Notes under the pieces: generated by a model
What the model was told of the DNA's origin: nothing
Database searches by the model: none
What the model saw: only the letters and a program-made list of their open reading frames with translations
Position numbers and translations under genes: made by a program
In this document: in pieces, positions 24,098 to 44,056 of the stretch
How positions within the stretch are numbered: the first letter of the stretch is position 1
Layout of the letters: each line of letters opens with the position of its first letter
Assembly: GCA_965219955.1 (NCBI GenBank)
Contig: OZ244799.1
Coordinates: 3,104,001-3,168,000, forward strand
Length of the DNA: 64,000 nt
DNA from: a bacterium
Lineage (GTDB): Bacteria; UBA8248
Direction: 5' to 3'

Positions 24098-24173
<76 letters not shown>

Positions 24174-25379: not shown

Positions 25380-25389
25380 GGAAACAATA

Positions 25390-26559: not shown

Positions 26560-26755
26560 TTATTTTTCACATATTATTTTTTGCATTTTCACGCGTTCCC
26601 CGCCTCGCCGGAGCGGCCACCCGGATCCTTCGATCCGCGTCGCCTCCGCCGCCTGAAAAACGAAGGATGACGAGCGGCCTTTCGAGCATACCCCGTCGCC
26701 CCGAAAATCCCGTGACGGCAAGCGGGGAAATGCGCCTTCGCCGCTCACCGCATCT

Positions 26756-27076: not shown

Positions 27077-27287
27077 GTCGGCGGAATCCGCCTCAGGTAA
27101 ATAAGATGCATCAAGCCGTCCGCATCAGAGGCAAGAGGCAAGCGGCATCCCGCCGCCATCATGGAGACGGGATGCCCGGAAAGTTGAATTTCGAGTGAAG
27201 CCGCCCCGGCTAGAAGATTGCCCCGGGGGCGTCCGGCTTTTTCCGCTCCCCGGCGGAAGGGGCGGTTCCCGCTTCTGGCGGGGAGCG

Positions 27288-28610: not shown

Positions 28611-28711
28611 CGTTCGTCCCTCCTCGGTTCGCGCGATCCATGGCTCCATGGACGCCCCGGCCTCTCGTGGCGGGCGCCCCGGTGGCTATATGCCAGAAAA
28701 CAATAGTCAGA

Positions 28712-29431
28712 TTACATGCCAAGGTACATCTGGCGAATGTTCGGGTCAAGCAAAAGCTCCGCCGAGTCTCCCTCGCGGCGGTTCCGCCCCATGTCCAGCA
28801 CGTATCCCCGGTCGGAATTCTCCAGGGCCTTGGCCGAGTTCTGCTCCACGACCAGGATGGATACGCCGTCGCGGTGAATCCGCTCGATGCTCTCGAAGAT
28901 GGTTTCCATCACCGTGGGCGCAAGCCCGATCGTCGGCTCATCCAGCAGGATGAGGGTCGGCCTGGTGACCATGGCCATCCCGAAGCTGAGCATCTGCCGC
29001 TGACCGCCGCTGAGGGTGCGGGCCTTGCTGCGCTCCTTCTCCTTCAGGATGGGGAACAGGCCGAATACCCCTTCGCGAGAGCGGCGCCGTTCCCCGGCGT
29101 CGGTCACCGTCCAGGCGCCGAGGTTGAGATGCTCGCTCACCGTCATCTGGGGGAAGATGTTGCGCCCCTGGGGGCAATACGCGACCCCGTGCTGGATGAT
29201 CAGGTGCGGCTCGATCCCGGTGATGTCCTCTCCCTCGAGGACGACCGTTCCCCCCGTCGGCTTCAGGTACCCCAGGATGGTCAGCAGCACGGTCGACTTG
29301 CCGGCGCCGTTCGGCCCGATGAGGGCGATCGTCTCGCCGCGGCCGACCTCGAGCGAGACGCCGTGCAGGATTTGCTTCTTGCCGTAGCCGGAGACGATCC
29401 CCTCGACCTTCAGCAGCGTATCCCCGGCCAT
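28712..29431 (-). CDS. ABC ATP-binding protein (LivF-like)
   Basis: GPNGAGKST, LSGGQRQM, LLDEP, VEQN. Confidence 0.92.
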   Translation of the reverse strand: MAGDTLLKVEGIVSGYGKKQILHGVSLEVGRGETIALIGPNGAGKSTVLLTILGYLKPTGGTVVLEGEDITGIEPHLIIQHGVAYCPQGRNIFPQMTVSEHLNLGAWTVTDAGERRRSREGVFGLFPILKEKERSKARTLSGGQRQMLSFGMAMVTRPTLILLDEPTIGLAPTVMETIFESIERIHRDGVSILVVEQNSAKALENSDRGYVLDMGRNRREGDSAELLLDPNIRQMYLGM

Positions 29432-29434
29432 GAC

Positions 29435-30142
29435 TCAAGCCCCGAAATAAGCGGTGAGGACCGCCTCGTTCCGCCGGACTTCGTCCGGCGAGCCTTCGGC
29501 GATCTTCTCACCCATGCTCAGTACGACGACGCGTTCGCAGTTGTTCATGATCACGTCCATGTTGTGTTCGATGATCAGAAAGGTCCTGCCTTCCTCATTC
29601 AGATGATGGATCAGCTCCAGCAATTTCTTCTGCATCATGGGACTGACGCCGGCGGCCGGCTCGTCGAGCAGGATCAGCCCCGGATCGAGCATCAGGACCT
29701 GGATGATGGAGAGGAGGCGTTGCTGGCCGAAGGAGAGGTCGCTCGCGTATTCGTCCCGCAGGTCGGCCAGGCCGACGAACTCGAGAAGTTCATGGGCCCT
29801 GTCGCTCGCGATGGTGTTTCGCGTCGGCAGGGTGGCGTTCTCCAGCAGGGTCATCTTGGGGAAGATGCGCGTCACCTGAAAGGTGCGGCCGATGCCCTTC
29901 CGGGCGATCTGGTAGGGCGGCAGACCCGTCACGTCCTCTCCGCGATAGAGAATGCGCCCGCCGTCCAGCGGCAGATACCCCACGATGGTATTGAACAGGG
30001 TCGTCTTGCCGGAGCCGTTGGGGCCGATCAGGCCGACGATCTCGCCCTCTCCGACGAAAAAGCCGCACCCGGCGAGCGCGTGGACGCCACCGAAGCTTTT
30101 CCGGACGTCGTGGATCTCGAGGATCGGACTATCGGCGGTCAT
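29435..30142 (-). CDS. ABC ATP-binding protein (LivG-like)
   Basis: GPNGSGKTT, LSFGQQ, LLDEP, IEHN. Confidence 0.92.
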   Translation of the reverse strand: MTADSPILEIHDVRKSFGGVHALAGCGFFVGEGEIVGLIGPNGSGKTTLFNTIVGYLPLDGGRILYRGEDVTGLPPYQIARKGIGRTFQVTRIFPKMTLLENATLPTRNTIASDRAHELLEFVGLADLRDEYASDLSFGQQRLLSIIQVLMLDPGLILLDEPAAGVSPMMQKKLLELIHHLNEEGRTFLIIEHNMDVIMNNCERVVVLSMGEKIAEGSPDEVRRNEAVLTAYFGA

Positions 30143-30202
30143 GCTCTTCCCCCGGTAGAATCGAGCGGTGTCGCGTGGTGCTGCGGGTTATCGCCTCCAT
30201 CG

Positions 30203-31150
30203 TCAGATCCACCTCGTTTTCGGCAGGATACCCACCTCCTTGAGGCGGACCAGGATGCCGTCGGGCATCCAGATGACCAGGCAGACCATAACGAGACCGA
30301 AGATGGTGATGTTGGCCTGGCCGAAATGCAGCCAGACGTAGTCGCTGATGAGCTGGAGCGTGAAGGCGCCGATCACCGCGCCGAGGACGGTTCCCAGCCC
30401 GCCGAACATGGCCATCACGATGGACAGCATGGTGTACTTGATGTCGAAAGCCGCGAACGGTTCGATGTAGTGCAGAAAGGTGGCATGAATGCCGCCCGCC
30501 GTGCCGGCGAAGAAAGCGCTGCCGACGAACACGCTGACCTTCACGGCGGTGGTATTGACCGCGAGACCGCTCGCCGCTGCCTCGTCTTCGCGAACGGCGA
30601 TCAGCGACAGGCCGAAGTGCGAACGGGCGAAGAACATGGTCGCCAGCACGATGCAGACCGTGAGCGCGAAGATGGCGTAGTACTTCTGGTTCAGGTTTCC
30701 CGCGAGGACGGGCATGCCGGCGCCGCCGCGCGTAAACGGCGTCAGGTACTTGGTGGATATAAGTACCCGGGCTCCCTCGGCCAGCGCCAGCATTGAGATC
30801 GCGAAATAGGCCCCGCGGATGCGCAGCAGCGGATAACCTATCACCGCCGCGACGAGGGCGGAGACGAGCCCGCCCGTCAGGTAGCCCGGGATCAGTCCCA
30901 TCTTGAAGTCGACGAAGCCGATGACCGAGGCGTACATGCCGAGTCCGACGAACAGGACGAAGCCGAAATTGATGTAGCCGGAAAAGCCGGAGAAGAAGTT
31001 CCAGGCACCGGCGAGGCAGGTGTAGTAGAGGATCAGGAACAGCAGGGAGACCGCCGCCGGACTCAAGAAGAGCGGCGCAGTAGCCGCGAGGACCGCGTAG
31101 GCTGTCAGGCCCACGGCGCCGACGATGGGAATCGCGCGTCTCCAGGTCAT
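30203..31150 (-). CDS. ABC permease (LivM-like)
   Basis: WNFFSGFSGYINFG, LRIRGAYFAI, AVREDE, MFGGLGT. Confidence 0.9.
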   Translation of the reverse strand: MTWRRAIPIVGAVGLTAYAVLAATAPLFLSPAAVSLLFLILYYTCLAGAWNFFSGFSGYINFGFVLFVGLGMYASVIGFVDFKMGLIPGYLTGGLVSALVAAVIGYPLLRIRGAYFAISMLALAEGARVLISTKYLTPFTRGGAGMPVLAGNLNQKYYAIFALTVCIVLATMFFARSHFGLSLIAVREDEAAASGLAVNTTAVKVSVFVGSAFFAGTAGGIHATFLHYIEPFAAFDIKYTMLSIVMAMFGGLGTVLGAVIGAFTLQLISDYVWLHFGQANITIFGLVMVCLVIWMPDGILVRLKEVGILPKTRWI

Positions 31151-31157
31151 GGCCGGA

Positions 31158-32033
31158 TCAATCCTCCACCCCGTAGCCGAGCAACCCTCGCCGCCGGATG
31201 GCCAGAATCAGCACGATGATCAGGTAAGGCAGCACCTGCGCCATGCGCGTCGTCAGGAAATAGGTGCCGACGCTCTCGACGATGCCGAAGATGTAGGCCC
31301 CCAGAAACGCGCCGGGCAGACTCCCGAGGCCGCCGATGACGACGATGGCGAAGGCCTTGGCAACGTAGATCAACCCCATTTGCGGATAAATCGTCCACAC
31401 CATCGCCACCATGGTCCCGCAGGCGCCCGCGAGCGCGATACCGAGGCTGAAGGTCACCGTCATGACCTGCTTGACGTTGATGCCGCAGGCTTGCGCCAGA
31501 CTCCGGTTCTGCGCGGTGGCGCGTATGGCCTCGCCGTATGCCGTGAACCGCAGGAGGGCGAAGAAAGCGGCGAGCAGGAGCAGCGCCAGCACGAAGGCGA
31601 CGAGATAGATCTTGCTGGTGGTGAGGAATCCGATCGTGACCGGCTCGCCCAGATAGTCGACCGAGCGAAAGGTCGGCGTGAAGACCACCTCCGCCGTGTT
31701 CCACAGGATCATGGAGATCCCGAAGGTCAGCATCATCGGCGGCATCAGCCCGCGGACGGCGACGACGTTGATCAGGAAATGCCCCAGCCCGAAGCCGATG
31801 GCGAAGAGCACCGCTATGGTGAGGGGCAGCGCCAGCAGCGGATTCATGCCGAGGAAAGCCCAGGCGCCGAAGGTGGTGAAGGCGCCGAGCATCACAAACT
31901 CGCCGTGGGCCGCGTTGACGACCCCGCAGACGCCGAAGATCAGGCTCAGACCGATGGCCACCAGTGCGTACATCGTCCCCAGGATGATCCCGAACGCGAT
32001 CAACTCGCCGAGGGCGCCGAGGGTTTCAAACAT
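31158..32033 (-). CDS. ABC permease (LivH-like)
   Basis: GLSLIFGV..VVNAAHGEF, VIGGLGSL.GA. Confidence 0.9.
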   Translation of the reverse strand: MFETLGALGELIAFGIILGTMYALVAIGLSLIFGVCGVVNAAHGEFVMLGAFTTFGAWAFLGMNPLLALPLTIAVLFAIGFGLGHFLINVVAVRGLMPPMMLTFGISMILWNTAEVVFTPTFRSVDYLGEPVTIGFLTTSKIYLVAFVLALLLLAAFFALLRFTAYGEAIRATAQNRSLAQACGINVKQVMTVTFSLGIALAGACGTMVAMVWTIYPQMGLIYVAKAFAIVVIGGLGSLPGAFLGAYIFGIVESVGTYFLTTRMAQVLPYLIIVLILAIRRRGLLGYGVED

Positions 32034-32113
32034 GCCGGGTTTCCCAAACGAAGGGTGGTGGCCGAAGCCGGCGACTCGGTGCAGCCGCCGGGAGCCCGCA
32101 TCGAAACGGACTA

Positions 32114-32403
32114 GGGGTTGTTGAAAAAATCCACAGAAGGAGCACGCTGGATTTCACTCCCCCCTTGAGGGTCTGGCTTCCCGAGGGGAAAGCCAGACGA
32201 AGAGCTAAGGGCGTAAGCCCGCAGGCGATTCGGTGGGGGGTGTAATTCGGAATGGCGATAAAACGCATTACACCCCCCACCGCATCAGCCTTCGCAAAAA
32301 CGCTCGGCTTCTGCGACTCCCCCTTAAGGGGGGAGTGATTTTTCTCTCTCGTCGGTCAGTTACATACGGCAAATCCAGTGTTCCAGGCTTTTTCAACAGA
32401 CCC
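32114..32403. mobile_element. MITE-like element with GGGGTTGTTGAAAAA...TTTTTCAACAGACCC terminal inverted repeats and internal palindromes
   Basis: TIR pair 32114-32132 / 32386-32403; internal cactcccccttgaggg, ggtggggggt..accccccacc, ctcccccttaaggggggagtga. Confidence 0.65.
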
Positions 32404-32445
32404 AACTCCCGGCGGTATGCAACGGTTCCGACGTGGCGCTTTCGC

Positions 32446-33732
32446 TTACATGGACTCCCACTTGAACGGGTGCTTGAACTTGGCGGAGGCGATCTTGCTC
32501 GGGTAGATCACCTCCGGCACCACCTTGCCGTTCTTGATCTGGTTCTGCAAAGCGAGCCGCGTGCCGCCGACCTGCAGTCCGGAGTCGGGATGACCCAGCG
32601 GGTTCACCCGGAAGCGTCCGAACACGGTGGCGCGATCGAGCGAGAACATGGCGTCGCGGATCGCCGAGCGATTCTCCACCGAGCCGGCCCGTTTGACCGC
32701 CTCCTCGAGAATCTGACAGCCGCCGTATCCGGCCGCCGCGAGCCAGTCGGGCGCCTTGTTGTACTCCTTGGCAAAGGAGTCGACGAACTTCTTGTTGCCG
32801 GGCCAGTCGGCCGTCGGGAGCCATTCGGTGTCGCTGCAATGCCAGGCCGCGTTCTTCCCGAGCGCCTGGTTGAAGTCCACGTGACCGAGAGCGGACATGT
32901 ACCAGATCGCCTTGGGCGCCCATTTCAGCGAAAGGGCGGCCTTGGCAATCAGGATGGAGTCGGCCGAGTAGCCGCCGCCGCAGAGCACCTCGGCGCCGGC
33001 GTCCCGGGCCTTGCGGACCAGCGGCACCATGTCCTGAATCCCGATGGGATAGGCCTCGTCGAGAACGAGGTCGAGACCCGCGGCCTTGATCCGCTTGCGC
33101 ACGCCCTCCGCCGCGGCGATCGGCATCGCATCGTCGATGTGCAGCAGGGCGACCTTCTTCATCCCGGCGTTCTTGCACATCACTTCCATGCCGGCGAAGC
33201 GGTCGCGGCTCGGGACCATGAGCTGCACCTGCCAGTCGAGCTTCTGGCCCAGCCATATCTTCTGGCTGGAGGCGGTGGCGCTGACGGTAGGAATCTTCGC
33301 CGCGGCGACGATGGGCCGCACCGCCAGGTTGATGGAGCTGGCGTAGGGGCCGAGCAGCAGGTCGACCTTCTGGTTGTGGATGAGATGAAGCATGAGCCGC
33401 GCGCCCTGGGTGGGGTCGCTCGTATCGTCGAGAACGGTCAGCTCGACCTTGCGCCCGTTGATGAGCCCGGGCTCGCTGTGCGGGAGTTTCTCGTTGCCGT
33501 AGCTGTAGCCCTTCTCGTTGATGTGCTTGGCCCAAAGCTTGTAGCCTTCGACACAGTACAGCGCCTCGCGGGAATACCGCCCGGTGAGCGGCATCGGGCA
33601 GCCGATCTTGATGGGCTTCGCGGCGCGGGCCGATGTCAGGATTCCCGGCGCCGCCAGGGTACCCAGGCCGGCCAAAGAACCAGCGGTCGAATACTTCAGG
33701 AACTCGCGTCTCGTGATCGTGCTCTTGGACAT
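32446..33732 (-). CDS. Liv-family ABC substrate-binding protein with Tat signal
   Basis: MSKSTITRREFLK twin-arginine signal after ggagga RBS; IKIG..MPLTG, LLGPYAS. Confidence 0.9.
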   Translation of the reverse strand: MSKSTITRREFLKYSTAGSLAGLGTLAAPGILTSARAAKPIKIGCPMPLTGRYSREALYCVEGYKLWAKHINEKGYSYGNEKLPHSEPGLINGRKVELTVLDDTSDPTQGARLMLHLIHNQKVDLLLGPYASSINLAVRPIVAAAKIPTVSATASSQKIWLGQKLDWQVQLMVPSRDRFAGMEVMCKNAGMKKVALLHIDDAMPIAAAEGVRKRIKAAGLDLVLDEAYPIGIQDMVPLVRKARDAGAEVLCGGGYSADSILIAKAALSLKWAPKAIWYMSALGHVDFNQALGKNAAWHCSDTEWLPTADWPGNKKFVDSFAKEYNKAPDWLAAAGYGGCQILEEAVKRAGSVENRSAIRDAMFSLDRATVFGRFRVNPLGHPDSGLQVGGTRLALQNQIKNGKVVPEVIYPSKIASAKFKHPFKWESM

Positions 33733-33942
33733 TTCTGTTCCTCCCTGATGGGTGCGATTGGACCGTTGCGCTTTGCGGGCCATCACCGACGGACGTTCGA
33801 ACGAGCGGCATCGCGAGCGGACGATCTCTCACGCCGCAATTCAAACGCCGAGCGGTTCGTTACGCCCCGCACGATGGATTATAAAGCCGGTATGGATACC
33901 CCATGCTACCACCGGGACCCCTCCGAAGCAAACAAAAGCTCA

Positions 33943-34324
33943 GGGGGTTGTTGAAAAAGCCTCCCTCGCTCGGAATTGGCCACTGTCGTCATTCCGGTAA
34001 TCAATGCCGACCGGGGAGGGATTGACACGATGGTTTTGTAGGGACAGGCCTCCGTGCCTGTCCTCACGAAGGACAACCACGAAAGGCAGGACAGGCACGG
34101 AGGCTTGTCCCTACGGCGAACAATCTCGAAGGTCGGATAGGACTTTTCAACAGCCCCGATGAATGAGCGTTTGCTCCCGCCCGGCGCGAGGCGTTCGATT
34201 CCCCTCGCCCTTCGATACAAACGCTCCTTTCTCAGTCGCGTTTTACTTTTGGCGGCTACTCAGGGTGAGGAAAGAGGTGTTGGCGGTTTGCAGGGGTCGC
34301 AGACGAGGCTTTTTCAACAGTCCC
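33943..34324. mobile_element. MITE-like/REP composite: GGGGGTTGTTGAAAAA left end, GTAG REP doublet, two TTTTCAACAG right ends
   Basis: Left end 33943; REPs 34038-34063 and 34089-34114; right ends 34140-34157 and 34307-34324. Confidence 0.65.
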
Positions 34325-34521
34325 GGCGCATGCGAATTTCCCAATCTTGCGCTTCATCGGCGAATTAGGTAACATTTTTCCACATCATTTCTTCTTTATA
34401 CCTGAAACAAATTCGAATATCTGAGAGCGGAGTTCCGCGTTCAGCACGTCTCCGTATGGGGGTGAGTGCGTATTTGTGGGTTTTCACTCACCAAAACGTA
34501 GTCAACAGGAGGACTTGCGAT

Positions 34522-35562
34522 ATGAGGTGCGCGTGGAAACGAATCAATATCATCATGCTCGTTGCGGTTGTGACGGTCTGGACCGTTGGCGCAGGCGTCT
34601 CGGAAGCGGCCAGGCACAAACTCGTCGTGGGTTCGGGCGGCGGCAACATCGGGGCGCCCATCCACGTCGCCAAGGTGAAGGGGTACTTCACGCAAGAAGA
34701 CCTTGCGATCGAACACAAGATATTCTCCTCCGGCGCGGCCATGGTCGAGGCGCTCGCGGCGGGCGGCGTCGAGCTGGGCCACTCGGGGGATCTGCCGTTC
34801 GTCTCGCTGGCCGCCGCCAACGTGCCCGCATGCATCATCGCCCAGAACGGTCAGGACAAGGACTACCTCGAGATTTTCGTCGGCAAAGACCTGGGGATGA
34901 CGAAACCCACCGACTTCTACGGGAAAAAAGTCGGGTTGCGGTTTGCATCCGCGGCCCACATTCTGTGGATCAATTTTCTGCAAAAATACAACCTGGACGC
35001 CAAAAAGATACGGGTGGTGAACCTGACGCCGAACGATCTCATCGCCGCCTACAAGAACAAGGACGTGGACGGCGGGGTGGTCTGGTATCCGCACCTGACG
35101 ACCGCGGAGCAGGTCCGCCCGACGCATTTCGCGCATTCCCAGTTGCTCAACAAGTTCGGCAAAATGGCGAAGCCCGCCAACATCCACCTTTCCTTCACCC
35201 TCATCAGCGCGCGGAAAGTGGCGCTCAAGAACAAGCCGGACGCCATGAAGGCGTATATGCGGGCGATGCTGAAGTCCTACCGGTTCATGAACGATTCGGG
35301 AAATCGCGCGGAGTTTCTGAAAATCCTGGGCAAGGCGTACAAGATGTCCGCTCCCGCGATGAAACCCATTCTTGACAACACTTTCTACAGGCTTGAGATT
35401 ACGGATGAAATGGTGAACGCCGAGCAGGCGGTGGCCAATAACATGAAAAGGGTCGGCAGGAAGCTCAAAAGAACGCCGAACATGAGAGAATTCGTCTATA
35501 CGGATCTCCTGAAGTCGGTCGCGAAGGATCTGGCGAAGACCGAAGGGGCCTGCAAGCTTTAG
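34522..35562 (+). CDS. Nitrate/sulfonate/taurine-type ABC substrate-binding protein
   Basis: Signal peptide; KGYF..E.L, FSSG..MVEALAAG, GKKVG, VDGGVVWYP; RBS aggagg. Confidence 0.85.
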   Translation: MRCAWKRINIIMLVAVVTVWTVGAGVSEAARHKLVVGSGGGNIGAPIHVAKVKGYFTQEDLAIEHKIFSSGAAMVEALAAGGVELGHSGDLPFVSLAAANVPACIIAQNGQDKDYLEIFVGKDLGMTKPTDFYGKKVGLRFASAAHILWINFLQKYNLDAKKIRVVNLTPNDLIAAYKNKDVDGGVVWYPHLTTAEQVRPTHFAHSQLLNKFGKMAKPANIHLSFTLISARKVALKNKPDAMKAYMRAMLKSYRFMNDSGNRAEFLKILGKAYKMSAPAMKPILDNTFYRLEITDEMVNAEQAVANNMKRVGRKLKRTPNMREFVYTDLLKSVAKDLAKTEGACKL

Positions 35563-35614
35563 GGGGACAGTCTCACTTTACCGGTTTGGGGTGTCTGTAT
35601 CGTGAACTTCCGAT

Positions 35615-36427
35615 ATGACGGTTAATCTTCAGGTAAATCGGGTCTCGAAAGAATTCGTCGACCGGCGCGCCAAGTCTAAGGTGCGGGCGCTGGACGAAAT
35701 AAACCTCGAGGTCCAAAAAGGCGAAGTCATCTGCATCCTCGGTCCCAGCGGATGCGGAAAATCCACCCTCCTGAACATCGTCGCGGGATTCCTCCCCCCC
35801 TCGGGGGGGGAGGTCCGCGTCGACGGGCGTCCGGTGGTCGAGCCGGGACCCGACCGGGGTTTCGTCTTCCAGGAATTCGCCCTTTTCCCCTGGCGGACGG
35901 TGCTCGAAAATATCGAATTCGGTCCTGTCCTGAAGGGGATGGAAAAGGCCGACAGGCACGCCCGCGCGCGGGAGCTCATCCAGCGCATCCACCTTACGGG
36001 ATTCGAGGACAAATACCCTTTCGAGCTTTCGGGCGGAATGAAGCAGCGCGTCGGGATCGCCCGGGCGCTGGCGAACGACCCCGAAGTGTTGCTGATGGAC
36101 GAACCTTTTGGCGCACTGGACGCCCAGACGCGCCGGGTGATGCAGGAAGAGCTCCTGAAGCTTCTCGGTGAAACGGAGAAAACCGTCCTCTTCGTGACCC
36201 ACGCCATCGACGAGGCCATCGTTCTGGCCGACCGGGTGCTGATCATGACGGCCCGCCCGGGCCAGGTGAAGGCTCTTCTCGGCGTCGACCTCCCCCGTCC
36301 CCGGGAGAGGACTTCTCCCGAATTCAACGAACTCTACCGGACGATGGACGACCTCATCCGGGTCGAGGTGGAGAAGGCGTCGGAAGTGCAGGATTCGGAT
36401 TCCGCGGCTTCGGGAGAGGACGCATGA
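35615..36427 (+). CDS. Nitrate/sulfonate-type ABC ATP-binding protein
   Basis: GPSGCGKST, VFQE.ALFPW, LSGGMKQR, MDEPFGALD. Confidence 0.92.
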   Translation: MTVNLQVNRVSKEFVDRRAKSKVRALDEINLEVQKGEVICILGPSGCGKSTLLNIVAGFLPPSGGEVRVDGRPVVEPGPDRGFVFQEFALFPWRTVLENIEFGPVLKGMEKADRHARARELIQRIHLTGFEDKYPFELSGGMKQRVGIARALANDPEVLLMDEPFGALDAQTRRVMQEELLKLLGETEKTVLFVTHAIDEAIVLADRVLIMTARPGQVKALLGVDLPRPRERTSPEFNELYRTMDDLIRVEVEKASEVQDSDSAASGEDA

Positions 36428-37194
36428 ACAGAAAAATGGCGACGCGCGCCGCCTCCATCGGCGGATTGGTTACCCTCTGGTTCGTGGTCACGCATTACAA
36501 GCTGGTCAATCCGCTCTTCCTGCCGCCGCCCAGGGAAGTCTGGGAGGGAGCGGTCGATCTTTTCCAGGCGGGTGAGTTGCGGGAGCACATTACCGCCAGC
36601 CTCTGGCGGATGTTCATGGGTTTCGTCGTCGGTTCCTTTACCGGCGTGGTCATCGGAATCCTGATGGGCCAGTTCCGCCTCTTCCACGCGGCCGTGGGGC
36701 CACTGGTCGAAATCATCCGGCCCATTCCCGGCCTGGCCTGGATCCCGGTGGCCCTTATCTGGTTCGGCATCGAAGACGCCTCCAAGGTATTCATCATATC
36801 CATGGGCGTGTTCCTCGCCGTCGTCACCAATACCTTCGTGGGGGTCCGCTCGCTGGACCCCGTTCTGGTGCGCGCCGCGCGCAGCCTGGGGGCCAACCGC
36901 CGGGACGTTTTCTTCCGCGTGGTTCTTCCCGGAACCCTCCCTCACATCTTCACCGGTTTCCGGCTGGGCGTTCAGGTCTCCTTCGCCCTGCTGGTTGCGG
37001 CGGAGCTGGTGGGTTCCACGTCGGGCCTTGGGTTCCTGATCCAGGACGCCCGGAATTATTTCCGCGGGGATCTGGTCATCCTGGGCATGGCCGTCATCGG
37101 CGCCCTGGGATTCAGCATCACGCGCCTCGTGGAAATCGCGGAGAGGTGGTTTCTCCACTGGCATTCCACGAGCCGGGAAGGCGCTTTCTACTAG
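36424..37194 (+). CDS. Nitrate/sulfonate-type ABC permease
   Basis: RPIP..AWIP, AARSLGA, LVAAEL. Confidence 0.9.
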   Translation: MNRKMATRAASIGGLVTLWFVVTHYKLVNPLFLPPPREVWEGAVDLFQAGELREHITASLWRMFMGFVVGSFTGVVIGILMGQFRLFHAAVGPLVEIIRPIPGLAWIPVALIWFGIEDASKVFIISMGVFLAVVTNTFVGVRSLDPVLVRAARSLGANRRDVFFRVVLPGTLPHIFTGFRLGVQVSFALLVAAELVGSTSGLGFLIQDARNYFRGDLVILGMAVIGALGFSITRLVEIAERWFLHWHSTSREGAFY

Positions 37195-37202
37195 GAGAGA
37201 CC

Positions 37203-37976
37203 TTGCAAACGCAATCCGTGTCGGGCCGCTTTGGAATATCCGCCGTCTCGGTGGCGGGGTTCGTCGTCCTCTGGCAGCTCTCCGTCACCCTCGGGCTGGT
37301 GGACCCGCTCATCCTGCCCTCCCCCTGGATGGCCATCCAGTCCGGGATCAGGCGCGCCGAGGGAGGTGAGCTCCTTCACCACATCATCGCCTCGGTGCTT
37401 CGCATCACCGAGGGGTTCTTCCTGGGCTCCGCCCTGGGCGTCGTGATCGGCTTGCTCATGGGGCAGGTCCGAATCATCGGCGATGCGCTCGAGCCGATCG
37501 TGGACATATTCCGGCAGATACCCGAGGTCGCGTGGATTCCCCTCGCCATCCTGATGTTCCAGATGGGGGAGGGCTCCAAGGTATTCATCATCACCTACGG
37601 CGCACTGTTTCCCGCCATCATCTGCACCTTCGACGGCGTCAGGATGACCGAGCCCGCCATCATCCGCGCGGCGCGCTCGCTGGGCGCGAGCCGGAGCCAG
37701 CTTTTCTGGCGGGTCACCCTGCCCGCCACCCTGCCCCACATCATGACCGGGCTGTGGATCGGACTCGGCTATGCTTTCCGCGGGCTCATCGCGGCCGAGT
37801 TGGCGGGGGCGCAGGAGGGAATCGGGTTCATGATCATGCTGGCGCGCGAAGACAACCTGACCGCGGACGCTTTCATGGGCATGGCGCTCATCGGGGTGAT
37901 TGGCTTTTGCGCCATCTACGGCCTGGGCGCGGTCCGCAACCACGTTCTCCGCTGGCACGAGAGCACGCAGGAATAA
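37203..37976 (+). CDS. Nitrate/sulfonate-type ABC permease (second)
   Basis: IPEVAWIP, AARSLGA, LIAAEL; TTG after aggag (start uncertain). Confidence 0.88.
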   Translation: MQTQSVSGRFGISAVSVAGFVVLWQLSVTLGLVDPLILPSPWMAIQSGIRRAEGGELLHHIIASVLRITEGFFLGSALGVVIGLLMGQVRIIGDALEPIVDIFRQIPEVAWIPLAILMFQMGEGSKVFIITYGALFPAIICTFDGVRMTEPAIIRAARSLGASRSQLFWRVTLPATLPHIMTGLWIGLGYAFRGLIAAELAGAQEGIGFMIMLAREDNLTADAFMGMALIGVIGFCAIYGLGAVRNHVLRWHESTQE

Positions 37977-38086
37977 GGTTTTTCATCCGGGCGCAGCGGC
38001 AGGACCCGCCGGGAGAAAGGCGCGCGCAATAAGCCCCGCTCAGGAGCGAGAGAAAGAGGTACGGCCGTCCGGATTGTGCGTGATTG

Positions 38087-38381
38087 CTAGATGAACCCGG
38101 CGACGGTGCCTTTCGCCGCGTCCAGGAAGCTGCCCGGGAAGATGCCCAGCAGAAGCGTCCCCACCACCAGCACCACCATCGCGAAGAAGAGCGAGGGCGC
38201 GCTCGAGAGGCTCATCACCTCCTGGGTCTCGCCCCGGTTCTCCATGTACAACACCATGATGATGCGCCCGTAGTAGTACATCGAGACCGCGCTCATCACG
38301 AGCCCGATGGCGGCGAGCCAGTAGTACTCGTTCTGCACCGCCGCGGCGAACAGGTAGAGTTTGCCCACGAAGCCGGCTGTC
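38087..38381 (-). pseudogene. nuoN: Duplicated 3' fragment of nuoN (last ~97 codons)
   Basis: TAGFVGKLYLFAAAVQNEYYW...KGTVAGFI* identical in protein to the end of 42554-44056; no 5' part. Confidence 0.9.
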
Positions 38382-38763
38382 ACTTCACAAACGTCTGGCT
38401 CGTCCGTCTTGACACCCAATCGCCCGGATGCCACGGTGCTCATGCGACACGTAAACACGGGTTTGGGAATGTGCAAGGGCTCCCTATAATTCGGGGTCCG
38501 TCCTGTTCGGACAAACTCCCTCCATTCCAAATACCGGCTCATACGGTGACGGTGCGAATTATGACCGAGAGTTATCTCTGGTATTTGCATCCTTGGTAGG
38601 ACTGCATTTTCTCGTTTGCATGTTCGCCGTGGTCGTGGGCCTCGTCTGTTGGATGTTGAAAAAGCAGAAGAATCCCCTCTCTGCCATTCAGGCCCAAACT
38701 GGCCAGATCGGAACTTTATGGAAGCTGCGGTTCTGAGTACCTAATATTCGAGGAAAAAACTTA

Positions 38764-39384
38764 ATGAGTGAGAATGATACATTCGGAGAAATCCTAAATC
38801 AGGAAATCCGGTGGCCCCTCCCGGGCGATGATCCGTTCGCGCCATCTTACGGATTGACAAGCGTCACCATTCCCGAAAATGAGCTCCCGCGCTTTTACAT
38901 GATGTTGATAGGTTACGAAGAAGCGGCAAATCATCTTGTCGATATAGCCCTTGAGAACAGGCACAGGAGAGAAGCTCTTATTTTCCCGATTTTGTTCCTG
39001 TATAGGCATTATATCGAGCTTCAACTCAAATATTTCATCAGCACCTATGGCCGTCACGCTGGAATTGAGCCCGTGTGGAAAACACATGATCTGACTATTC
39101 TGTGGCGTCGGTTCAAAGAGATTCTCGATGAGTTTGTGGGGGAGGATCAGGACCCAGACGATGCGGATACGACTGTCGAAAATATCGTTGCGCAATTCGC
39201 CAAAATGGATCCGCGCTCATTTTCCTACCGCTACCCTTGCGACAAAAAAGGACGTCCCGTGCCGATTGCCTATAACAATTTAGATCTGGAAACCCTCAAA
39301 GATGTAATGGGTGGCTTATCCGCTTATTTTGGCGGTTGTGAGGGCTATTTTGATAATTTGGTTTCAGCAGAACCACACCCTTAA
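38764..39384 (+). CDS. Hypothetical protein with HEPN-like motif pattern
   Basis: LYRHYIELQLK ... KTHDL..LW ... SYRYP spacing resembles HEPN ExxLK/THDL/RYP. Confidence 0.55.
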   Translation: MSENDTFGEILNQEIRWPLPGDDPFAPSYGLTSVTIPENELPRFYMMLIGYEEAANHLVDIALENRHRREALIFPILFLYRHYIELQLKYFISTYGRHAGIEPVWKTHDLTILWRRFKEILDEFVGEDQDPDDADTTVENIVAQFAKMDPRSFSYRYPCDKKGRPVPIAYNNLDLETLKDVMGGLSAYFGGCEGYFDNLVSAEPHP

Positions 39385-39642
39385 TAATCGCCACAACTCT
39401 CAGTTGGAGAACAAGGCAATGGCAGACATGTATCAGGGAATTCTTATGAAATTAACATATATGGACATCATTGCATTATCGTATGAGCCAAACATCTGCA
39501 TGTGGTACTGAAAGTCGGGCCGCCTGCTGAATACAAAACCGCTCCCAGCGGGAATAGGCAGGGTCTCACCCAAAACGTGCAGATGTTTGGCGACCGACCC
39601 GGCCTTACAGGAAGGTCAGGGCAACTCTAAGGAGAAGTCGTC

Positions 39643-41016
39643 ATGTTCGCCAAACGCATTACAGCGGTTCTTTCCCTGTTGGTTTTCGCGTTCGGTTGTG
39701 GCGGCGGTTCGATGAAAAACGAACTGCCGGTTCAGAATTACTCAAGGCCAGCTTACCGGAACCCGAATTACCATCCCTATTTAACGCCATCCCATGTTTA
39801 CTGGTGGGAGAACACAATATATGTGGGCGGCGACGTTGAGCCTCGCGAGAAGTTGCGTCGTGTCGGGACTTTTGACGGGATCAATGTTTCTTTAGGAGCC
39901 TCGCGTGATGGCGTCGGGGTAGACCGACTGAGAAAATACGATCGCGATTTGAGAACCGATTCACGTAATGGATTCTATCCATTCAGGGCGCCTCCAAAGA
40001 TTTGGCTTGAAGATGATTTTTACAGACTTCTCAGGGCAAATAATGGAAAAGCGGAAGGTCTTCTGCAAGCATTGTTCGGGAGCGTTCAGATTCTCAACGA
40101 TGCCCTTCCACCTGAATTTCAAATCGACTTCACTTCTGAAGATTCACACCAGGTAGAGGGAACAATCGCTATCGCATTTCGTTCCCCTGGAAGTATTGCG
40201 GATATTTGTGGTATCGCTGGTGCTGTCGCATGCGCATCATCGGATATTTCAAATTTGAGCAATAAGACGAATACAGCCGTTATCTATCTTCCCGACAACC
40301 TGGACACATCGAAAACACAAACAACCCAAACGATTATACTTCATGAACTTTTACACGCTCTTGGCATTCAGGGTCATTTGGACAGCATCGAATTTCCTGA
40401 TTCACTTATGGGCGCATACGGCGATTTTTTCCCGAACCCAGGGTTCGTGTTACACCGCATTGATCGAGAGATTTTACAAATTATGTACATGTCCCAACGG
40501 ACAGACGATTACAATGATTGGGGAGAGTGGAGCGATACGACCCTGCACCTGGTCGGGGAGTCTGTCGATGGGCACGTGAACTTCGGGGTGGCGCTGTTCA
40601 ACGGATTGCCTCAACCTTGGGCGCGTGGCGTGGCGCCTCGAAGTATACTGAGTTCCGAAGTAAAACCATCTTACTTGATCGGGTCCGTTTCGTGGAAAGG
40701 CTCCTTGTTGGGGTTCTCGGGAATATCTCCGGTTTACGGAGAAACTACGCTCACTGTTGATATGGATAACCTTGATGACGAACAAAACCTGAGTTTCAGG
40801 AACCTGTTCTTCCTGAGTCGGTTCGAGGAAAGCGGAGCCGAAAGATGGTTCCCTACTCGAAACATAAGCTACAAGGTGAAGATGGCACAGCAAGGATTTT
40901 ATCGTTCCGAAGATGACGGCCAGATTACAGGCGTCTTCCTCGGCCCAAAACATGAGGGCATGGCAGGGACCATCAAGCGCACAGATCTGGTCGGCGCGTT
41001 TGGGGGGAAACGATAA
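39643..41016 (+). CDS. Lipoprotein with metzincin-like zinc protease motif and TbpB-like C-terminal barrel
   Basis: Lipobox FAFGC; HELLHALGIQGH then SLM; C-terminal GVFLGPKHEGMAG..LVGAFGGKR. Confidence 0.7.
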   Translation: MFAKRITAVLSLLVFAFGCGGGSMKNELPVQNYSRPAYRNPNYHPYLTPSHVYWWENTIYVGGDVEPREKLRRVGTFDGINVSLGASRDGVGVDRLRKYDRDLRTDSRNGFYPFRAPPKIWLEDDFYRLLRANNGKAEGLLQALFGSVQILNDALPPEFQIDFTSEDSHQVEGTIAIAFRSPGSIADICGIAGAVACASSDISNLSNKTNTAVIYLPDNLDTSKTQTTQTIILHELLHALGIQGHLDSIEFPDSLMGAYGDFFPNPGFVLHRIDREILQIMYMSQRTDDYNDWGEWSDTTLHLVGESVDGHVNFGVALFNGLPQPWARGVAPRSILSSEVKPSYLIGSVSWKGSLLGFSGISPVYGETTLTVDMDNLDDEQNLSFRNLFFLSRFEESGAERWFPTRNISYKVKMAQQGFYRSEDDGQITGVFLGPKHEGMAGTIKRTDLVGAFGGKR

Positions 41017-41017
41017 A

Positions 41018-41485
41018 ATGCTAAAACGGATTTTTGCAATTACAGGTGTTTTTGTCCTGGGCATTTCAGGCTGTGTCTCAGTAGAGGAATTGGCCCGACA
41101 GGAATTGGGAAGTGTCGCCGAACACAAGAGGATTTTCGTGGAGTGCAAGGGAAAGGTGTTTGCGTTCAGGGAATGGATTGAAAAGAAGAAGGTGCTTTTC
41201 ACGAAACGAGAAAGGCGCACCAAAAGCAGTCGGGTATATGCGAAATGTCTTGAGGAAAAGCTCGGGGTGGTTTTGGCAGACGTTGTTCCCACGACCAGCC
41301 TCGATATTCAATCCAAAACATCGTTGCGGTTTTATAATGTTGGGCTCTTAGCTGAACGATTTTTTGAGCGTGCTCGAAAATGGGATGAGGTCATCCACGA
41401 AAACGGCGAGCCGTGGAAAGGGTACTGGCTAGAACACAATGAGATGATAGATAAGTGGCGAAAGATATACAAGGATGCAAATTAG
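41018..41485 (+). CDS. Hypothetical lipoprotein
   Basis: MLKRIFAITGVFVLGISGC lipobox; ATG 2 nt after the upstream stop. Confidence 0.6.
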   Translation: MLKRIFAITGVFVLGISGCVSVEELARQELGSVAEHKRIFVECKGKVFAFREWIEKKKVLFTKRERRTKSSRVYAKCLEEKLGVVLADVVPTTSLDIQSKTSLRFYNVGLLAERFFERARKWDEVIHENGEPWKGYWLEHNEMIDKWRKIYKDAN

Positions 41486-41494
41486 GAATTCTGC

Positions 41495-41797
41495 TCACAT
41501 TTTGCTTTTCTGAATTTTCAGTTGGAGTATCTCGCTTTGAGTTTCCCTTGTGTTCTCGATTAAAGAAGCAAGTTCTTCTTTCGGAGGCCAGCGTTCGTGC
41601 CAGTCAAACTCTAGTTCAGGGCGGGGTTTGAATGTGTTTTCTTCAGCGGAATCGTCCCATGTGAGGTAAGCGAGCATTCGTTTCAGTTCTTTCGAAAGCC
41701 TTGCGGTTTTCGCTTCGAGGCAAGCGAGGGTTCTTTCGCAACTATCAAGAGCGACGATAACATGTTCTCTTTCCTTCCTTTTTTCTTCCTCGTTCAC
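41495..41797 (-). CDS. Hypothetical coiled-coil protein, probable IS1595 passenger
   Basis: 100 aa; GTG start overlaps the transposase TGA (gtga). Confidence 0.5.
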   Translation of the reverse strand: MNEEEKRKEREHVIVALDSCERTLACLEAKTARLSKELKRMLAYLTWDDSAEENTFKPRPELEFDWHERWPPKEELASLIENTRETQSEILQLKIQKSKM

Positions 41798-42260
41798 GCC
41801 GCCAAACCCTTGTATGATAGCCGCTTTCCCGTGAATCCTTCCGCTATTCTCCGCATCTGATCGGCGGTGTCTACAGACCGCTGGTTGTGGTGTCCCTCAA
41901 GCTCGTTCACGTAGCGTTGCAGGTGCTTGTTGCTGTTCTTGTGGTAGGTGCCATAAAGCCCTCTTTTGGGCATAGCCAAAATAACTCCACGCCGTTGCTA
42001 TGCGCCTGTTCCCTCACGTATTCCCCCGCGCTGTGCTTCATGGATTCATGCTCAAATCCACCATGTCTCAATAGCAGGGATTGTCGTCCGTGTAGAGCGT
42101 GGCACCCATGACGGCGTTCTCCCGCACGAAGCCCTGCAAGGTGGGCTTGTCTGGTGACCCGCCCCATTCCTCGCCCAGCTTCACGACTTCGGCGGAATCC
42201 TTGTTTGTGCTTCGGTCTTTCATGCCTATAACCGCCGTTTTCCCCAATGGCCTCTATGCC
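41794..42260 (-). pseudogene. IS1595-family (ISXO2-like) transposase remnant
   Basis: Pieces in changing frames: GKTAVIGMKDR..TLQGFV..ATLYTDD (then TGA); HES.KHS.GEYVR..AHSNGVE.FW; KRG.YGTYHK.S.KHLQRYVNE..GKRLSY. Confidence 0.85.
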
Positions 42261-42498
42261 TGTCTGAGATCGCGGCCTCGGGCCGTTCACAAGAACGTCC
42301 CACCACGAGGCGGTGCGGTTTTGTCCGTCATTCCGGTGTCAGTCCCGGCCGGGGAGGGAGTGATTGTGCGGCCGCGCGGAAAACGGACAGTCTGTGCGTT
42401 TGGAATGTTCGAACTTGAGACCCGGCTTTCTCGCCGTAGCAAAGAAAAGTGACGCACCCCTAAGAACAAGCGCGCCGTGTCCGCAAAGAGGCGCATTG

Positions 42499-42522
42499 GC
42501 CCCCTGCTAAAAAGCAAGGGGC
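42499..42522 (-). terminator. Stem-loop downstream of nuoN
   Basis: gccccttgct-tttt-agcagggggc ~30 nt after the stop; no clear U tract. Confidence 0.4.
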
Positions 42523-42553
42523 GGGCGTACGATTCAGATGTTGCGTGTGATTG

Positions 42554-44056
42554 CTAGATGAAGCCGGCGACGGTGCCCTTCGCCGCGTCCAGGAAGCTGC
42601 CCGGGAAGATGCCCAGCAGAAGCGTCCCCACCACCAGCACCACCATCGCGAAGAAGAGCGAGGGCGCGCTCGAGAGGCTCATCACCTCCTGGGTCTCGCC
42701 CCGGTTCTCCATGTACAACACCATGATGATGCGCCCGTAGTAGTACATCGAGACCGCGCTCATCACGAGCCCGATGGCGGCGAGCCAGTAATACTCGTTC
42801 TGCACCGCCGCGGCGAACAGGTAGAGCTTGCCGACGAAGCCGGCCGTCGGCGGTATGCCGCCGAGCGAGAGCAGGAACACCACGAAGGCCATGCCCGCCC
42901 AGGGATGCGCCTGCCCGATTCCCTTCCAGTCCTCGATGTTGTCGCCCCGGTAGCCGTCGCGGCACACGAGAATCAGCATCCCGAAGGCCCCGAGGTTCGT
43001 GAACAGGTAGGCGAGCAGATAGAACGCCACCGCGCTGATGCCGATGTCGGTGAACGTCACCTTGCCGTCCACGACGCTCATGGAGACCACCACGCCCATC
43101 AGCACGTAGCCCGCATGCCCGATGCTCGAATACGCCAGCATGCGCTTGAGGCTCGTCTGCGCGATGGCCGCCACGTTCCCCCACACCATCGTGAACGCCG
43201 TGAGCACCCACAACAGGGTGTTCCAGCTCTCGGCCATGGCCGGGAACGCCACGAAGAATATCCGCATCAGGGCGGCCACGGTCGCGAACTTGACGGCCAC
43301 GGACATGAAGCCCGTGATCGGCGTCGGCGCGCCCGTATAGGCGTCGGGCAGCCACATGTGGAACGGCGCCAGCGCCAGCTTGAAGCCGAAGCCCGCGACG
43401 AGGAGGATGAGGCCGAAAATCATCGCCGGGTTCTGCGCGATGGCGGCGCCGCCCGAGCCCGCGAACGCCTCCGCGATTCCGCGAATCGAGGTCGTTCCGG
43501 TAAACCCGTAGGTAAGCGCCATGCCGTAGAGCAGGACGCCCGAGGCGAAGGCGCCCATCAGGAAATACTTGAGGCCCGCCTCCCGGCTCAGGGGGTCGTG
43601 CCGCATGAACGCCACGAGCACGTAGATGCTGATGCTCATGGTTTCGAGCCCCAGATAGACGGTGAGCAAATCGTTGCCCGAGGCCATCACGAGCATCCCG
43701 AACACCGAGAAGAGCAGCATGGCGTAGAATTCGCCGTAGTTGATCTTCTCCACCTTTGCGTATTGAAGCATCAGCAGGATGGAGATGGCCGTACAGGCCA
43801 GCACGCACACCTTCACGAACACGCTCATGTTGTCGACTACGTAAAAGCCGTTGAACGTCGTTCTCGCGCCCTCGCCCCATTGCCCGAAGGCGACGAGCCC
43901 CAGGATAACGACCCCCACGAACGCCACGACGCCCACGCGGGATTTGTTCTCCATCGACACGAACAGGTCGAGGATCAGGACCGTGCAGACGAGTATGGCC
44001 AGCCCGATTTCGGGAAGCGCCAGGGATAAGGCGATGTCGGGAATCACCACTTCCAT
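42554..44056 (-). CDS. nuoN: NADH-quinone oxidoreductase subunit N (cluster 2)
   Basis: EAGLKYFLMGA, APFHMWLPDAYTGAP, KRMLAYSSIGH, PPTAGFVGK. Confidence 0.95.
   Translation of the reverse strand: MEVVIPDIALSLALPEIGLAILVCTVLILDLFVSMENKSRVGVVAFVGVVILGLVAFGQWGEGARTTFNGFYVVDNMSVFVKVCVLACTAISILLMLQYAKVEKINYGEFYAMLLFSVFGMLVMASGNDLLTVYLGLETMSISIYVLVAFMRHDPLSREAGLKYFLMGAFASGVLLYGMALTYGFTGTTSIRGIAEAFAGSGGAAIAQNPAMIFGLILLVAGFGFKLALAPFHMWLPDAYTGAPTPITGFMSVAVKFATVAALMRIFFVAFPAMAESWNTLLWVLTAFTMVWGNVAAIAQTSLKRMLAYSSIGHAGYVLMGVVVSMSVVDGKVTFTDIGISAVAFYLLAYLFTNLGAFGMLILVCRDGYRGDNIEDWKGIGQAHPWAGMAFVVFLLSLGGIPPTAGFVGKLYLFAAAVQNEYYWLAAIGLVMSAVSMYYYGRIIMVLYMENRGETQEVMSLSSAPSLFFAMVVLVVGTLLLGIFPGSFLDAAKGTVAGFI

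Follow-up and report, generated by a model that had tools for sequence, protein, structure and literature searches.

A duplicated nuoN 3′ end around AT-rich accessory DNA as the probable scar of an old insertion in an integrase-less hotspot

The 3′ end of the complex I gene nuoN is present twice in the stretch of bacterial DNA analysed here (the window, 64,000 nucleotides, from a genome termed G000), and the two copies enclose 4.2 kb of AT-richer DNA. We propose that this 302-bp repeat is probably an old homology-anchored insertion scar, located in a hotspot of gene exchange that lacks an integrase.

Comparison of the window with itself at an offset of 4467 reproduced the direct repeat described in the initial annotation: positions 42547-42848 are a gap-free second copy of 38080-38381, and a weaker identity runs on past the repeat edge to 38074/42541. 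A repeat search returned 300 nt at 98% for the same feature. The duplicated DNA takes in the last 98 codons of nuoN, the stop codon and 7-13 nt beyond. Within its coding part the copies differ at 38096, 38111, 38324, 38360, 38366 and 38378, in precisely the codons read by eye beforehand (Gly GGG/GGC, Lys AAA/AAG twice, Tyr TAC/TAT, Val GTG/GTC and Thr ACA/ACG), and a formal count gave six synonymous and no nonsynonymous changes. As the synonymous-site fraction is 0.243, the probability of a 6:0 outcome is P=2e-4 if changes are neutral. The differences are grouped at both edges of the repeat, and the middle 212 nt are identical (simulation P=0.003).

The left copy constitutes a nuoN′ fragment (38087..38381, minus strand) of the last 98 codons plus stop, which reads through into a 167-aa chimeric ORF (38087..38590). 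The right copy provides the last 295 nt of an intact nuoN of 500 aa (42554..44056, minus strand; PF00361, E=8.5e-74). The 3′ end of this intact gene together with about 100 nt downstream is the native sequence throughout the genus; the native downstream sequence, which includes a hairpin (42453..42553, minus strand), can be aligned in most congeners. The terminator-like sequence downstream of the fragment (38016..38086, minus strand) has its nearest relatives in the versions of G003 and G005. In G000, the sequences downstream of the two copies are only 47% alike and resemble different relatives. The GC content is 0.44-0.52 within the island and 0.60-0.67 outside, in agreement with the AT-rich character assigned to it earlier. 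The nuoN paralogue (52354..53832) is uninterrupted and, again as annotated, differs at the site matching the dyad discussed below, where it reads GLPPTGGFVAKF.

The left copy ends within a dyad. Both the complete dyad GCCGACG-AAGCCGGC-CGTCGGC at 42830-42851 in intact nuoN and its 8-nt spacer, preserved at 38370-38377 in the fragment, are present as claimed initially. The dyad belongs to the 302-bp repeat, where it codes for the conserved PPTAGFVGK motif; perfect 7-8-7 dyads account for 1.2% of all window positions and for 2.4% of those in the nuo region. The junction-proximal 19 nt of the fragment (38363..38381) comprise the dyad's left arm and spacer together with 4 nt from its right arm. This piece, which starts exactly at the left arm, is the sole part of nuoN′ left in the relative G002. 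Microhomology at the joint is weak, with no more than 3-4 nt (GTC) in common past the mismatch at 38378, and the 19-mer has no second occurrence in the G000 genome. A joint within a 7-8-7 dyad fits a recombinase core; inverted repeats, however, favour illegitimate joins too.

That this arrangement is an assembly artefact, whether made by fusing strains or by collapsing or duplicating a repeat, has a practically negligible probability. The genome does look like a single contig assembled from a metagenome, with 5% contamination, and in the sample that is its likely source the short-read contigs break in the identical repeat core. In the probable source run (X20), however, contigs pass through the left junction and tile the right side at 0 differences. 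A contig of 4,313 nt from a separate study (X2) spans from 38284 in the left copy to 42587 in the right copy, and contigs from two further studies (X1 and X3) cover the same junctions at about 94-95% identity. The architecture in the relative G011 is identical as well. The misassembly envisaged in the initial annotation is therefore contradicted by contigs from three other studies that span the island. One X1 contig displays a joint from 38347 to 42484 that, with a side of 20 nt, is too weak for any conclusion.

The left end of the island (38382..38737) is common to G011 (to 38536, 94.7%) and G002 (93%). Relative to G002, about 440 bp were lost here from G000, and a YHYH-domain ORF is thereby truncated. 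It is followed by a 206-aa ORF (38764..39384, plus strand) without family match, for which one homologue, 56% identical, is encoded at another locus of G008. Two thirds of the island are a copy of an IS1595-family cargo transposon that is truncated at both ends (39466..42246). This copy comprises a 457-aa lipoprotein with an HExxHxxGxxH motif (39643-41016) and a 190-aa ORF (40913-41485). On the minus strand it has a 100-aa ORF (41495-41797) and what is left of the transposase (about 41797-42250), residues 168-317 in three frame pieces. The G012 transposase aligns with the window over these residues (tblastn, E=2e-31), and a 61-aa piece scores 25.5 bits in Pfam, under the 27-bit cut-off. Positions 39466-41488 (84%) and 41834-42246 (80%) match a complete 3,740-bp element of G012 (L058:8929-12668), which lies at another locus, encodes an IS1595 transposase between perfect 24-bp inverted repeats and is flanked by the 8-bp target duplication TTTTCTTT; in G000 nothing is inserted at that site. 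The nuoN hotspot of G012 is itself filled by another complete member of this family (L027:8484-12926; 4,443 bp), with the target duplication ATAAAATA. Members of the IS1595 family generate 8-bp target duplications and can carry passenger genes. Because the window contains no match to the transposon inverted repeats at up to 3 or up to 5 mismatches, its copy is a remnant; around the IS1595 gene of the G008 island, no convincing inverted repeats were found either. A short dispersed repeat lies at 42267..42366, with at least 40 copies in G000, and many contigs end there. The search for the 457-aa cargo protein in metagenome contigs gave 44 pattern matches and no confirmed one, and the cargo ORFs obtained weak sub-threshold matches only in PADLOC and NCBIfam.

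The island forms part of a larger variable region. Its conserved flank (24098..26587), which aligns in 17 congeners, holds a tRNA-Phe (24098-24173, minus strand), an AIR-synthase-related gene (24177-25379) and a HAD hydrolase gene (25348-25974), followed by conserved intergenic DNA to about 26587. Across 17 genomes, the distance from this flank to the nuoN stop codon ranges from 126 bp (G004) to 15,966 bp (G000), and the content, which is unrelated between genomes, includes genes for hydantoinases and branched-chain-type ABC transporters, a ParA-like gene and IS1595 elements. Such different content at one spot between core genes in 17 genomes identifies an integrase-less hotspot of horizontal gene transfer. 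Many hotspots without integrases are known, with turnover via recombination at the core genes that flank them, as PMC5635113 relates. In the comparison with G002, the spacer between flank and nuoN was poorly conserved. An 11-kb chromosomal segment (27136..37990) lies in the hotspot in no genomes other than G000, G003 and G005. On its minus strand it carries a branched-chain-type ABC transporter, on its plus strand an NMT1-type ABC operon (34456-37976). Copies that are 96% identical occupy another locus in G002, G012 and G016. On this comparison, the ABC operon next to the fragment is not the ancestral neighbour of nuoN.

At the DNA level, 22 congeners were compared. The initial annotation had asked whether nuoN lies directly beside the ABC operon in related genomes; this exact empty site, with ABC operon, downstream sequence and intact nuoN contiguous, was found in G003 and G005. 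The same picture would also arise by recombination between the repeats and removal of the island. The junction of nuoN′ with the island (at about codon 403) recurs with different cargo in G011, which has the same architecture with 1.2 kb of other DNA behind the junction, and in G002; the junction is hence older than the present island. A C at 38366 specific to the fragment is common to all three genomes, and their one junction is common by descent. It is absent from G003, G005 and G016, and this patchy distribution requires several losses or transfers. G011 is the closest genome to G000 throughout (96-98%). The possibility that a G003-like recipient had recently taken up DNA from a donor resembling G011 was rejected, as G011 is closest along the whole 20-64 kb compared and not just around the island.

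G008 harbours an independent duplication of 941 bp that starts at about codon 295. Its coding part has 16 synonymous and 2 nonsynonymous differences, its downstream part is 81.9% identical, and the edge of the fragment has a best match of no more than 93.9% among the sampled genomes, whereas the intact copy of G008 is 97% identical to G004. Here too, the differences lie at the edges of the repeat, and the inner 418 nt are 99% identical. Per 295 nt, the two copies differ at 6 positions in G000, 9 in G011 and 5 in G008. Judged from these sequences, the 16:2 ratio and the unfamiliar edge in G008, like the 6:0 ratio in G000, carry what would be the signature of a foreign allele that had been functional.

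The search for an integrase in this region was negative. None of the 23 PF00589 matches in the G000 genome falls in the window, Pfam detected no integrase in 20 ORFs that eight relatives encode in the same region, and the eight island ORFs tested by Pfam yielded nothing beyond the IS1595 remnant; serine recombinases were covered by these scans of island and regional ORFs. A site-specific element with a tyrosine-recombinase core at the dyad, as originally proposed, is not supported by these results, and the integrase genes that were to be looked for beside nuoN 3′ duplications in other genomes were not found among these 20 ORFs. The island (38382-42546) has no plasmid or phage match. A 26-mer from its left end is absent from the metagenome and viral contigs searched and, among genome contigs, matches those of G011 and G002 only. 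Neither a circular nor an attP joint was seen in assembled contigs, in which rare forms are invisible, and Rfam gave no match on 37500-43000 at E<=0.1. A literature search turned up no paper reporting integration at nuoN by its title, a thin basis for calling the site undescribed.

On the basis of these results, we favour the following course of events. DNA of a related strain, in which a nuoN 3′ end and terminator region were joined to foreign DNA, would have recombined with the resident nuoN in the hotspot between the AIRS/HAD flank and nuoN. The route may have been a single crossover of a circular molecule, or recombination that was homologous at one end and an illegitimate join at the other (HFIR). 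Either way, nuoN would end up present once in intact form and once as a displaced or additional 3′ fragment; with one nuoN left intact, complex I would be unharmed. The variable length of the duplication (302 bp in G000, 371 bp in G011 and 941 bp in G008) fits both routes. In Escherichia coli, when circles with a part of lacZ recombined by single crossover, duplications of 109-950 bp resulted, according to PMC3240628. Later, gene conversion may have homogenized the middle of the two nuoN copies, as suggested by the spacing of the differences, and the cargo would have been replaced, with an IS1595-family transposon inserting in G000 and then being truncated at both ends. The 11-kb ABC-transporter segment would also have come to adjoin the fragment at a later stage, and recombination from repeat to repeat could remove the island and so create the state of G003 and G005. 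No donor or circular intermediate of the junction-making event was found.

The initial annotation interpreted the island as an integrative element that targets nuoN. Foreign DNA between a displaced 3′ fragment and intact nuoN, and the empty site, are what stands of this proposal. An element of the e14 or phage 21 type, bringing a replacement nuoN 3′ end in its attP, a core at the dyad and an integrase that has decayed or acts in trans, would leave AT-rich DNA between direct repeats of the 3′ end of a gene that stays intact, and the empty site of G003 and G005, the synonymous nature of 6/6 differences, the position of the joint inside a dyad class covering 1.2% of window bases and the start of the 19-nt G002 remnant at the dyad arm all agree with it. 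So does e14 itself, which is flanked by icd and an icdC fragment in the same manner, as PMC13626634 indicates. We nevertheless consider this origin unlikely, since no integrase was detected in the window or in the 20 regional ORFs of 8 genomes, the cargo is mostly a truncated DDE transposon, and three genomes share one junction that predates the island and precedes differing cargo. Moreover, the G008 duplication has other endpoints and an intact copy that looks native, the repeat pairs group by host lineage and not with each other across hosts, the junction 19-mer is unique in the genome, and the left end occurs in no phage, plasmid, viral or metagenome record searched. An integrase may have been lost long ago from all carriers of the junction.

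It is likewise doubtful that the repeat arose without import, by an in situ tandem duplication of the nuoN 3′ end into which transposons inserted later. A decaying fragment should gain mostly nonsynonymous changes, in conflict with the 6:0 ratio of G000 (P=2e-4) and with 16:2 in G008, whose repeat has diverged by 18% outside the coding sequence; the dissimilar downstream sequences of G000, with their different relatives, are also at odds with an internal event. Nonetheless, the two copies of each genome are nearest or near-nearest relatives, transposons demonstrably insert in the spacer, as seen in G012, and an X1 metagenome contig has only about 260 bp from the fragment to the next start of downstream sequence plus nuoN. 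Part of the synonymous bias could also result from gene conversion by the intact copy, so this argument is not decisive. Rather improbable, finally, is the idea that the nuoN 3′ end and terminator serve as a recurrent landing pad in the genus, with repeated capture of integrase-less DNA always regenerating an intact nuoN, either via an unrecognised trans-acting recombinase at the PPTAGFVGK dyad or via a dedicated class of elements whose integration module is a nuoN 3′ cassette. If this were true, the at least two independent events, in the G000/G011/G002 lineage and in G008, would be its footprint.

At icd of E. coli, where e14 and phage 21 integrate, the gene remains intact, as here, since its 3′ end is doubled, and the copies differ mostly synonymously; loss of e14 recombines icd and the icdC pseudogene, as described in PMC13626634. 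In contrast to the nuoN site, e14 encodes a site-specific recombination system itself and invariably uses a single site, whereas at nuoN no integrase was found, the endpoints vary, the cargo varies behind one junction, and the intact 3′ end and its terminator look native. Campbell-type single crossovers and HFIR share with the nuoN island the linkage of foreign DNA to a homologous stretch and a partial duplication of variable length, and the same recombination idea has been put forward for orphan 3′ regions and immunity-gene arrays in T6SS/Rhs loci (PMC5361080). Those cases, however, are laboratory events or toxin loci, whereas the anchor here is a complex I gene of uncultured bacteria and the event is reconstructed. 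Compared with the integrase-less hotspots of Oliveira et al. 2017, the nuoN spot additionally keeps a partial duplicate of one flanking core gene, for which that model has no need. Complete IS1595-family transposons have a zinc-ribbon DDE_Tnp_IS1595 transposase, 24-bp inverted repeats and 8-bp duplications; the window copy differs in having lost both ends and half of its transposase, and is therefore no longer mobile.

The nuoN finding does not reveal a new integration system. Instead, it illustrates that direct repeats of a gene 3′ end around AT-rich DNA, usually read as an integrase-borne island, can be an old scar with replaced contents, and that an essential complex I gene can adjoin a fast-changing region undamaged. 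It further documents a source of accessory DNA for these bacteria in IS1595-family transposons, whose passenger genes encode surface lipoproteins and possibly tRNAs.

Self-comparison of the window revealed a direct repeat with an offset of 4467, in which 38080-38381 matches 42547-42848 and weaker identity extends to 38074. As the intact nuoN gene (500 amino acids; Proton_antipo_M, E=8.5e-74) occupies 42554..44056 on the minus strand, the repeat takes in the final 98 codons of the gene with the stop codon, plus a few bases past it. The displaced 3' fragment (nuoN') and the intact gene enclose an island of 4.2 kb, which is AT-richer than its surroundings (GC 0.44-0.52 inside, 0.60-0.67 outside), as the initial annotation had stated. 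Its descriptions of a dyad at 42830-42851, of an intact nuoN paralogue at 52354..53832 and of six coding mismatches between the copies, all synonymous, were likewise reproduced exactly. Given a synonymous-site fraction of 0.243, an all-synonymous outcome (6/6) has P=2e-4 under neutral change; the mismatches lie at both edges of the repeat, leaving a central 212 nt free of differences (simulation, P=0.003). The all-synonymous pattern is nevertheless weaker evidence than it appears, because five of the variants exist as standing polymorphism in the genus and gene conversion from the intact gene would likewise keep a fragment clean. The downstream sequences of the two copies are just 47% alike, and each resembles different relatives.

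Reading through nuoN', a chimeric 167-aa open reading frame (ORF; 38087-38590, minus strand) joins 69 island-derived residues to the last 98 residues of NuoN; its equivalent in the congener G011 has 141 aa. The 110 nt downstream of nuoN (42444-42553) share ~65% identity between G011 and G000, the genome bearing the window, compared with 96-98% for the adjacent genes, and include a hairpin that has changed in sequence and is still a hairpin; this intergenic stretch is unusually quick to evolve or to be replaced. Within a few kb of the first nuoL-M-N set, a second complex I gene set at 49527-55382 contains a nuoD-like ORF, the second nuoN (52354..53832) and a nuoM-like ORF (53835..55382).

The initial annotation had named a chimeric misassembly as what could undo the structure, and the metagenome runs, all compared as assembled contigs, do not bear it out. 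Contigs of X20, the likely source run of the G000 assembly, span the junction on the left and, on the right side, form a tiling path with 0 differences, and a 4,313-nt contig of X2, from a separate study, extends from 38284 in nuoN' to 42587 in the intact gene. Contigs of X1 and X3, from two further studies, cover the same junctions at ~94-95% identity. An assembly artefact was thus rejected. In the X1, X2 and X3 versions, 337 nt at 41149-41487 are swapped for 344 other letters, and in one X1 contig 38641 runs back into 38016, giving a version in which just ~260 bp separate the fragment from the next nuoN downstream region.

The junction is also found in two congeners. G011, the nearest genome to G000 along the whole comparable window (96-98% rightward, 89-95% leftward), carries the same nuoN fragment joined at the identical nucleotide to the same left end (38034-38536, 94.7%). 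Beyond this come 1.1 kb of unrelated DNA, in which there are two small ORFs, and finally the downstream region and intact nuoN. G002 retains the left end (38363-38737, 93%) preceded by just 19 nt of nuoN. At the position equivalent to 38366, the fragments of all three genomes share a C that is absent from their intact copies, and three of the nine differences in the G011 fragment are nonsynonymous. In G000, the 19-nt junction motif occurs solely in the two nuoN copies. Since G011 and G002 share the junction and its left end shows much the same divergence as the remainder of the genome, comparison of these sequences indicates that the joint is old and that the cargo behind it has changed.

An independent duplication is present in G008. 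Here, 618 nt of nuoN (from ~codon 295) and ~320 nt downstream are duplicated (941 bp, 91.8% identity) around 3.9 kb in which unknown ORFs accompany an IS1595 transposase gene and a tRNA-like sequence. The coding differences comprise 16 synonymous and 2 nonsynonymous changes, identity over the inner 418 coding nt is 99%, and that of the non-coding part is just 81.9%. Over the junction-proximal 200 nt, G004 shares 97% identity with the intact copy, and it also matches the upstream nuo operon and three of four 400-nt bins just past the flank boundary at 96.5-99%; the best match of the fragment to any sampled genome is 93.9%. The intact gene therefore looks native and the fragment imported, the opposite of what a replacement model predicts. 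The tRNA-like sequence, a 90-nt tRNA-Asp-like match by ARAGORN (L022:8224-8313) adjoining the transposase gene, may be a pseudo-tRNA.

In G012, a complete IS1595-family transposon of 3,740 bp (L058:8929-12668) is bounded by perfect 24-bp terminal inverted repeats and an 8-bp target duplication, TTTTCTTT, and encodes the transposase across two ORFs; its passengers are two lipoprotein genes. At the matching site, G000 has no insertion and one TTTTCTTT. The interior of the G012 transposon is homologous to 39466-41488 (84%) and 41834-42246 (80%) of the island. Its outer parts, 255 bp on one side and 624 bp on the other, are absent from the island; they contain both inverted repeats and encode the N-terminal half of the transposase. 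Judged by this homology, two thirds of the island are a dead cargo transposon. Inside this G012 element, at a different locus, lies an 87%-identical orthologue of the island's 457-aa lipoprotein ORF (39643-41016), whose translation contains an HExxHxxGxxH motif. Look-alikes of this protein, taken as leads only, include matrixin-type and M57 peptidases, and its C-terminus is weakly Slam-lipoprotein-like, well below cut-off. It belongs to a large family of paralogous ~460-aa lipoproteins, marked by the motif and a conserved C-terminal domain, which has 14 matches in G000 and at least one in 18 of the 23 genomes of the genus, G000 counted. The remaining island comprises the old left end (38382-38737), a decayed form of a G002 region encoding a YHYH-domain protein, a 206-aa ORF that has a single distant homologue, in G008, a short dispersed repeat (42267-42366) with at least 40 copies in G000, and ~100 nt of native nuoN downstream sequence. 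A second complete family member (4,443 bp, L027:8484-12926; 24-bp inverted repeats, target duplication ATAAAATA) sits in the conserved flank next to nuoN in G012 and makes up almost all of its variable region there. Within it, ARAGORN called a tRNA-Val (11269-11345) flanked by inverted repeats and a tRNA-Ser (12819-12895) preceded by them; tRNA genes would be unusual transposon passengers.

A DNA search covered 22 same-genus genomes, and the nuoN downstream region was taken from 21. The empty site anticipated in the initial annotation was found, as an exact one, in G003 and G005, where the NMT1-type ABC operon, similar downstream sequence and one intact nuoN follow each other without interruption. 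The operon is not the original neighbour of nuoN. The conserved flank consists of tRNA-Phe and of genes for an AIR-synthase-related protein and a HAD hydrolase; it ends near 26587, and from its alignable part to the nuoN stop we measured, in 17 genomes, 126 bp (G004), 261 bp (G007), 264 bp (G016), ~342 bp (G009), ~347 bp (G001), 455 bp (G015), 1,507 bp (G019), 2,243 bp (G011), 2,322 bp (G006), 2,828 bp (G022), 2,830 bp (G002), 4,832 bp (G013), 5,070 bp (G012), 5,547 bp (G008), 6,412 bp (G014), 10,785 bp (G020) and 15,966 bp (G000). In G005, G010, G018 and G021 the flank lay off the fetched piece, G017 offered a 71-nt contig-end match alone, and G003 has a flank-like repeat ~10.6 kb from nuoN. 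Gene content varies as well: G013 has hydantoinase genes, G020 a branched-chain-type ABC transporter, G006 a ParA-like gene, and G012 and G008 IS1595 elements. Only G000, G003 and G005 have an 11-kb block (27136-37990) of a branched-chain-type ABC transporter and the NMT1-type operon in the space from flank to nuoN; in G002, G012 and G016 a 96%-identical block occupies another locus, hundreds of kb distant, and G011 (genome 93% complete) yielded no copy. Four short dispersed repeats (~100-330 bp; 26404-26735, 32114-32405, 34158-34329 and 42267-42366), each with many copies in G000 or congeners, include two that interrupt the block and one that marks its left border. In its behaviour the site resembles the integrase-less hotspots reported across bacteria (PMC5635113).

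The initial annotation had proposed an integrative element of the e14 and phage 21 type that targets nuoN and supplies a replacement 3' end. It is conceivable that the duplication was integrase-borne, with the dyad as recombinase core and the integrase lost long ago from every carrier: the joint falls within a perfect 7-8-7 dyad, a structure that takes up 1.2% of the bases in the window (2.4% in the nuo region), and the G002 remnant starts exactly at the left arm, which is how a recombinase core would look. However, the dyad also has a plain reading as the codons of the invariant PPTAGFVGK motif, and illegitimate joins are promoted by inverted repeats. Pfam searches of the island ORFs yielded nothing beyond a remnant IS1595 DDE domain, and none of the 23 Phage_integrase matches in the G000 genome falls within the window. 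Genus-wide, no integrase lies at the hotspot among the matches listed, and none is encoded by 20 larger variable-region ORFs of G020, G012, G006, G002, G022, G014 and G013, by five of G008 or by two of G011; the suggested search for integrases beside nuoN 3' duplications thus came out empty in the window and in the ORFs of relatives examined. With no recombinase found among these ORFs, varying endpoints and a G008 pattern opposite to replacement, the proposed mechanism is not supported.

In the most probable history the original event was homology-anchored, which fits the variable endpoints, the allele-like differences and the absent recombinase. In the experiments of PMC3240628, circular molecules bearing a partial gene produced, by single crossover, duplications of 109-950 bp of that gene. 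An early event would have joined foreign DNA to nuoN at the dyad, leaving two copies of the 3' end and terminator region; the copies would later have been homogenised in their middle, transposons would have arrived and decayed, and the ABC segment would have come to adjoin the fragment. Recombination from repeat to repeat would yield the state of G003 and G005.

The original observation was correct and carefully made, and the structure is genuine and is seen repeatedly within the genus. That the nuoN end serves as a dedicated landing pad for integrase-less elements strikes us as improbable. The locus is best filed under known kinds, as a hotspot scar with a duplicated gene end and a decayed IS1595-family cargo transposon.
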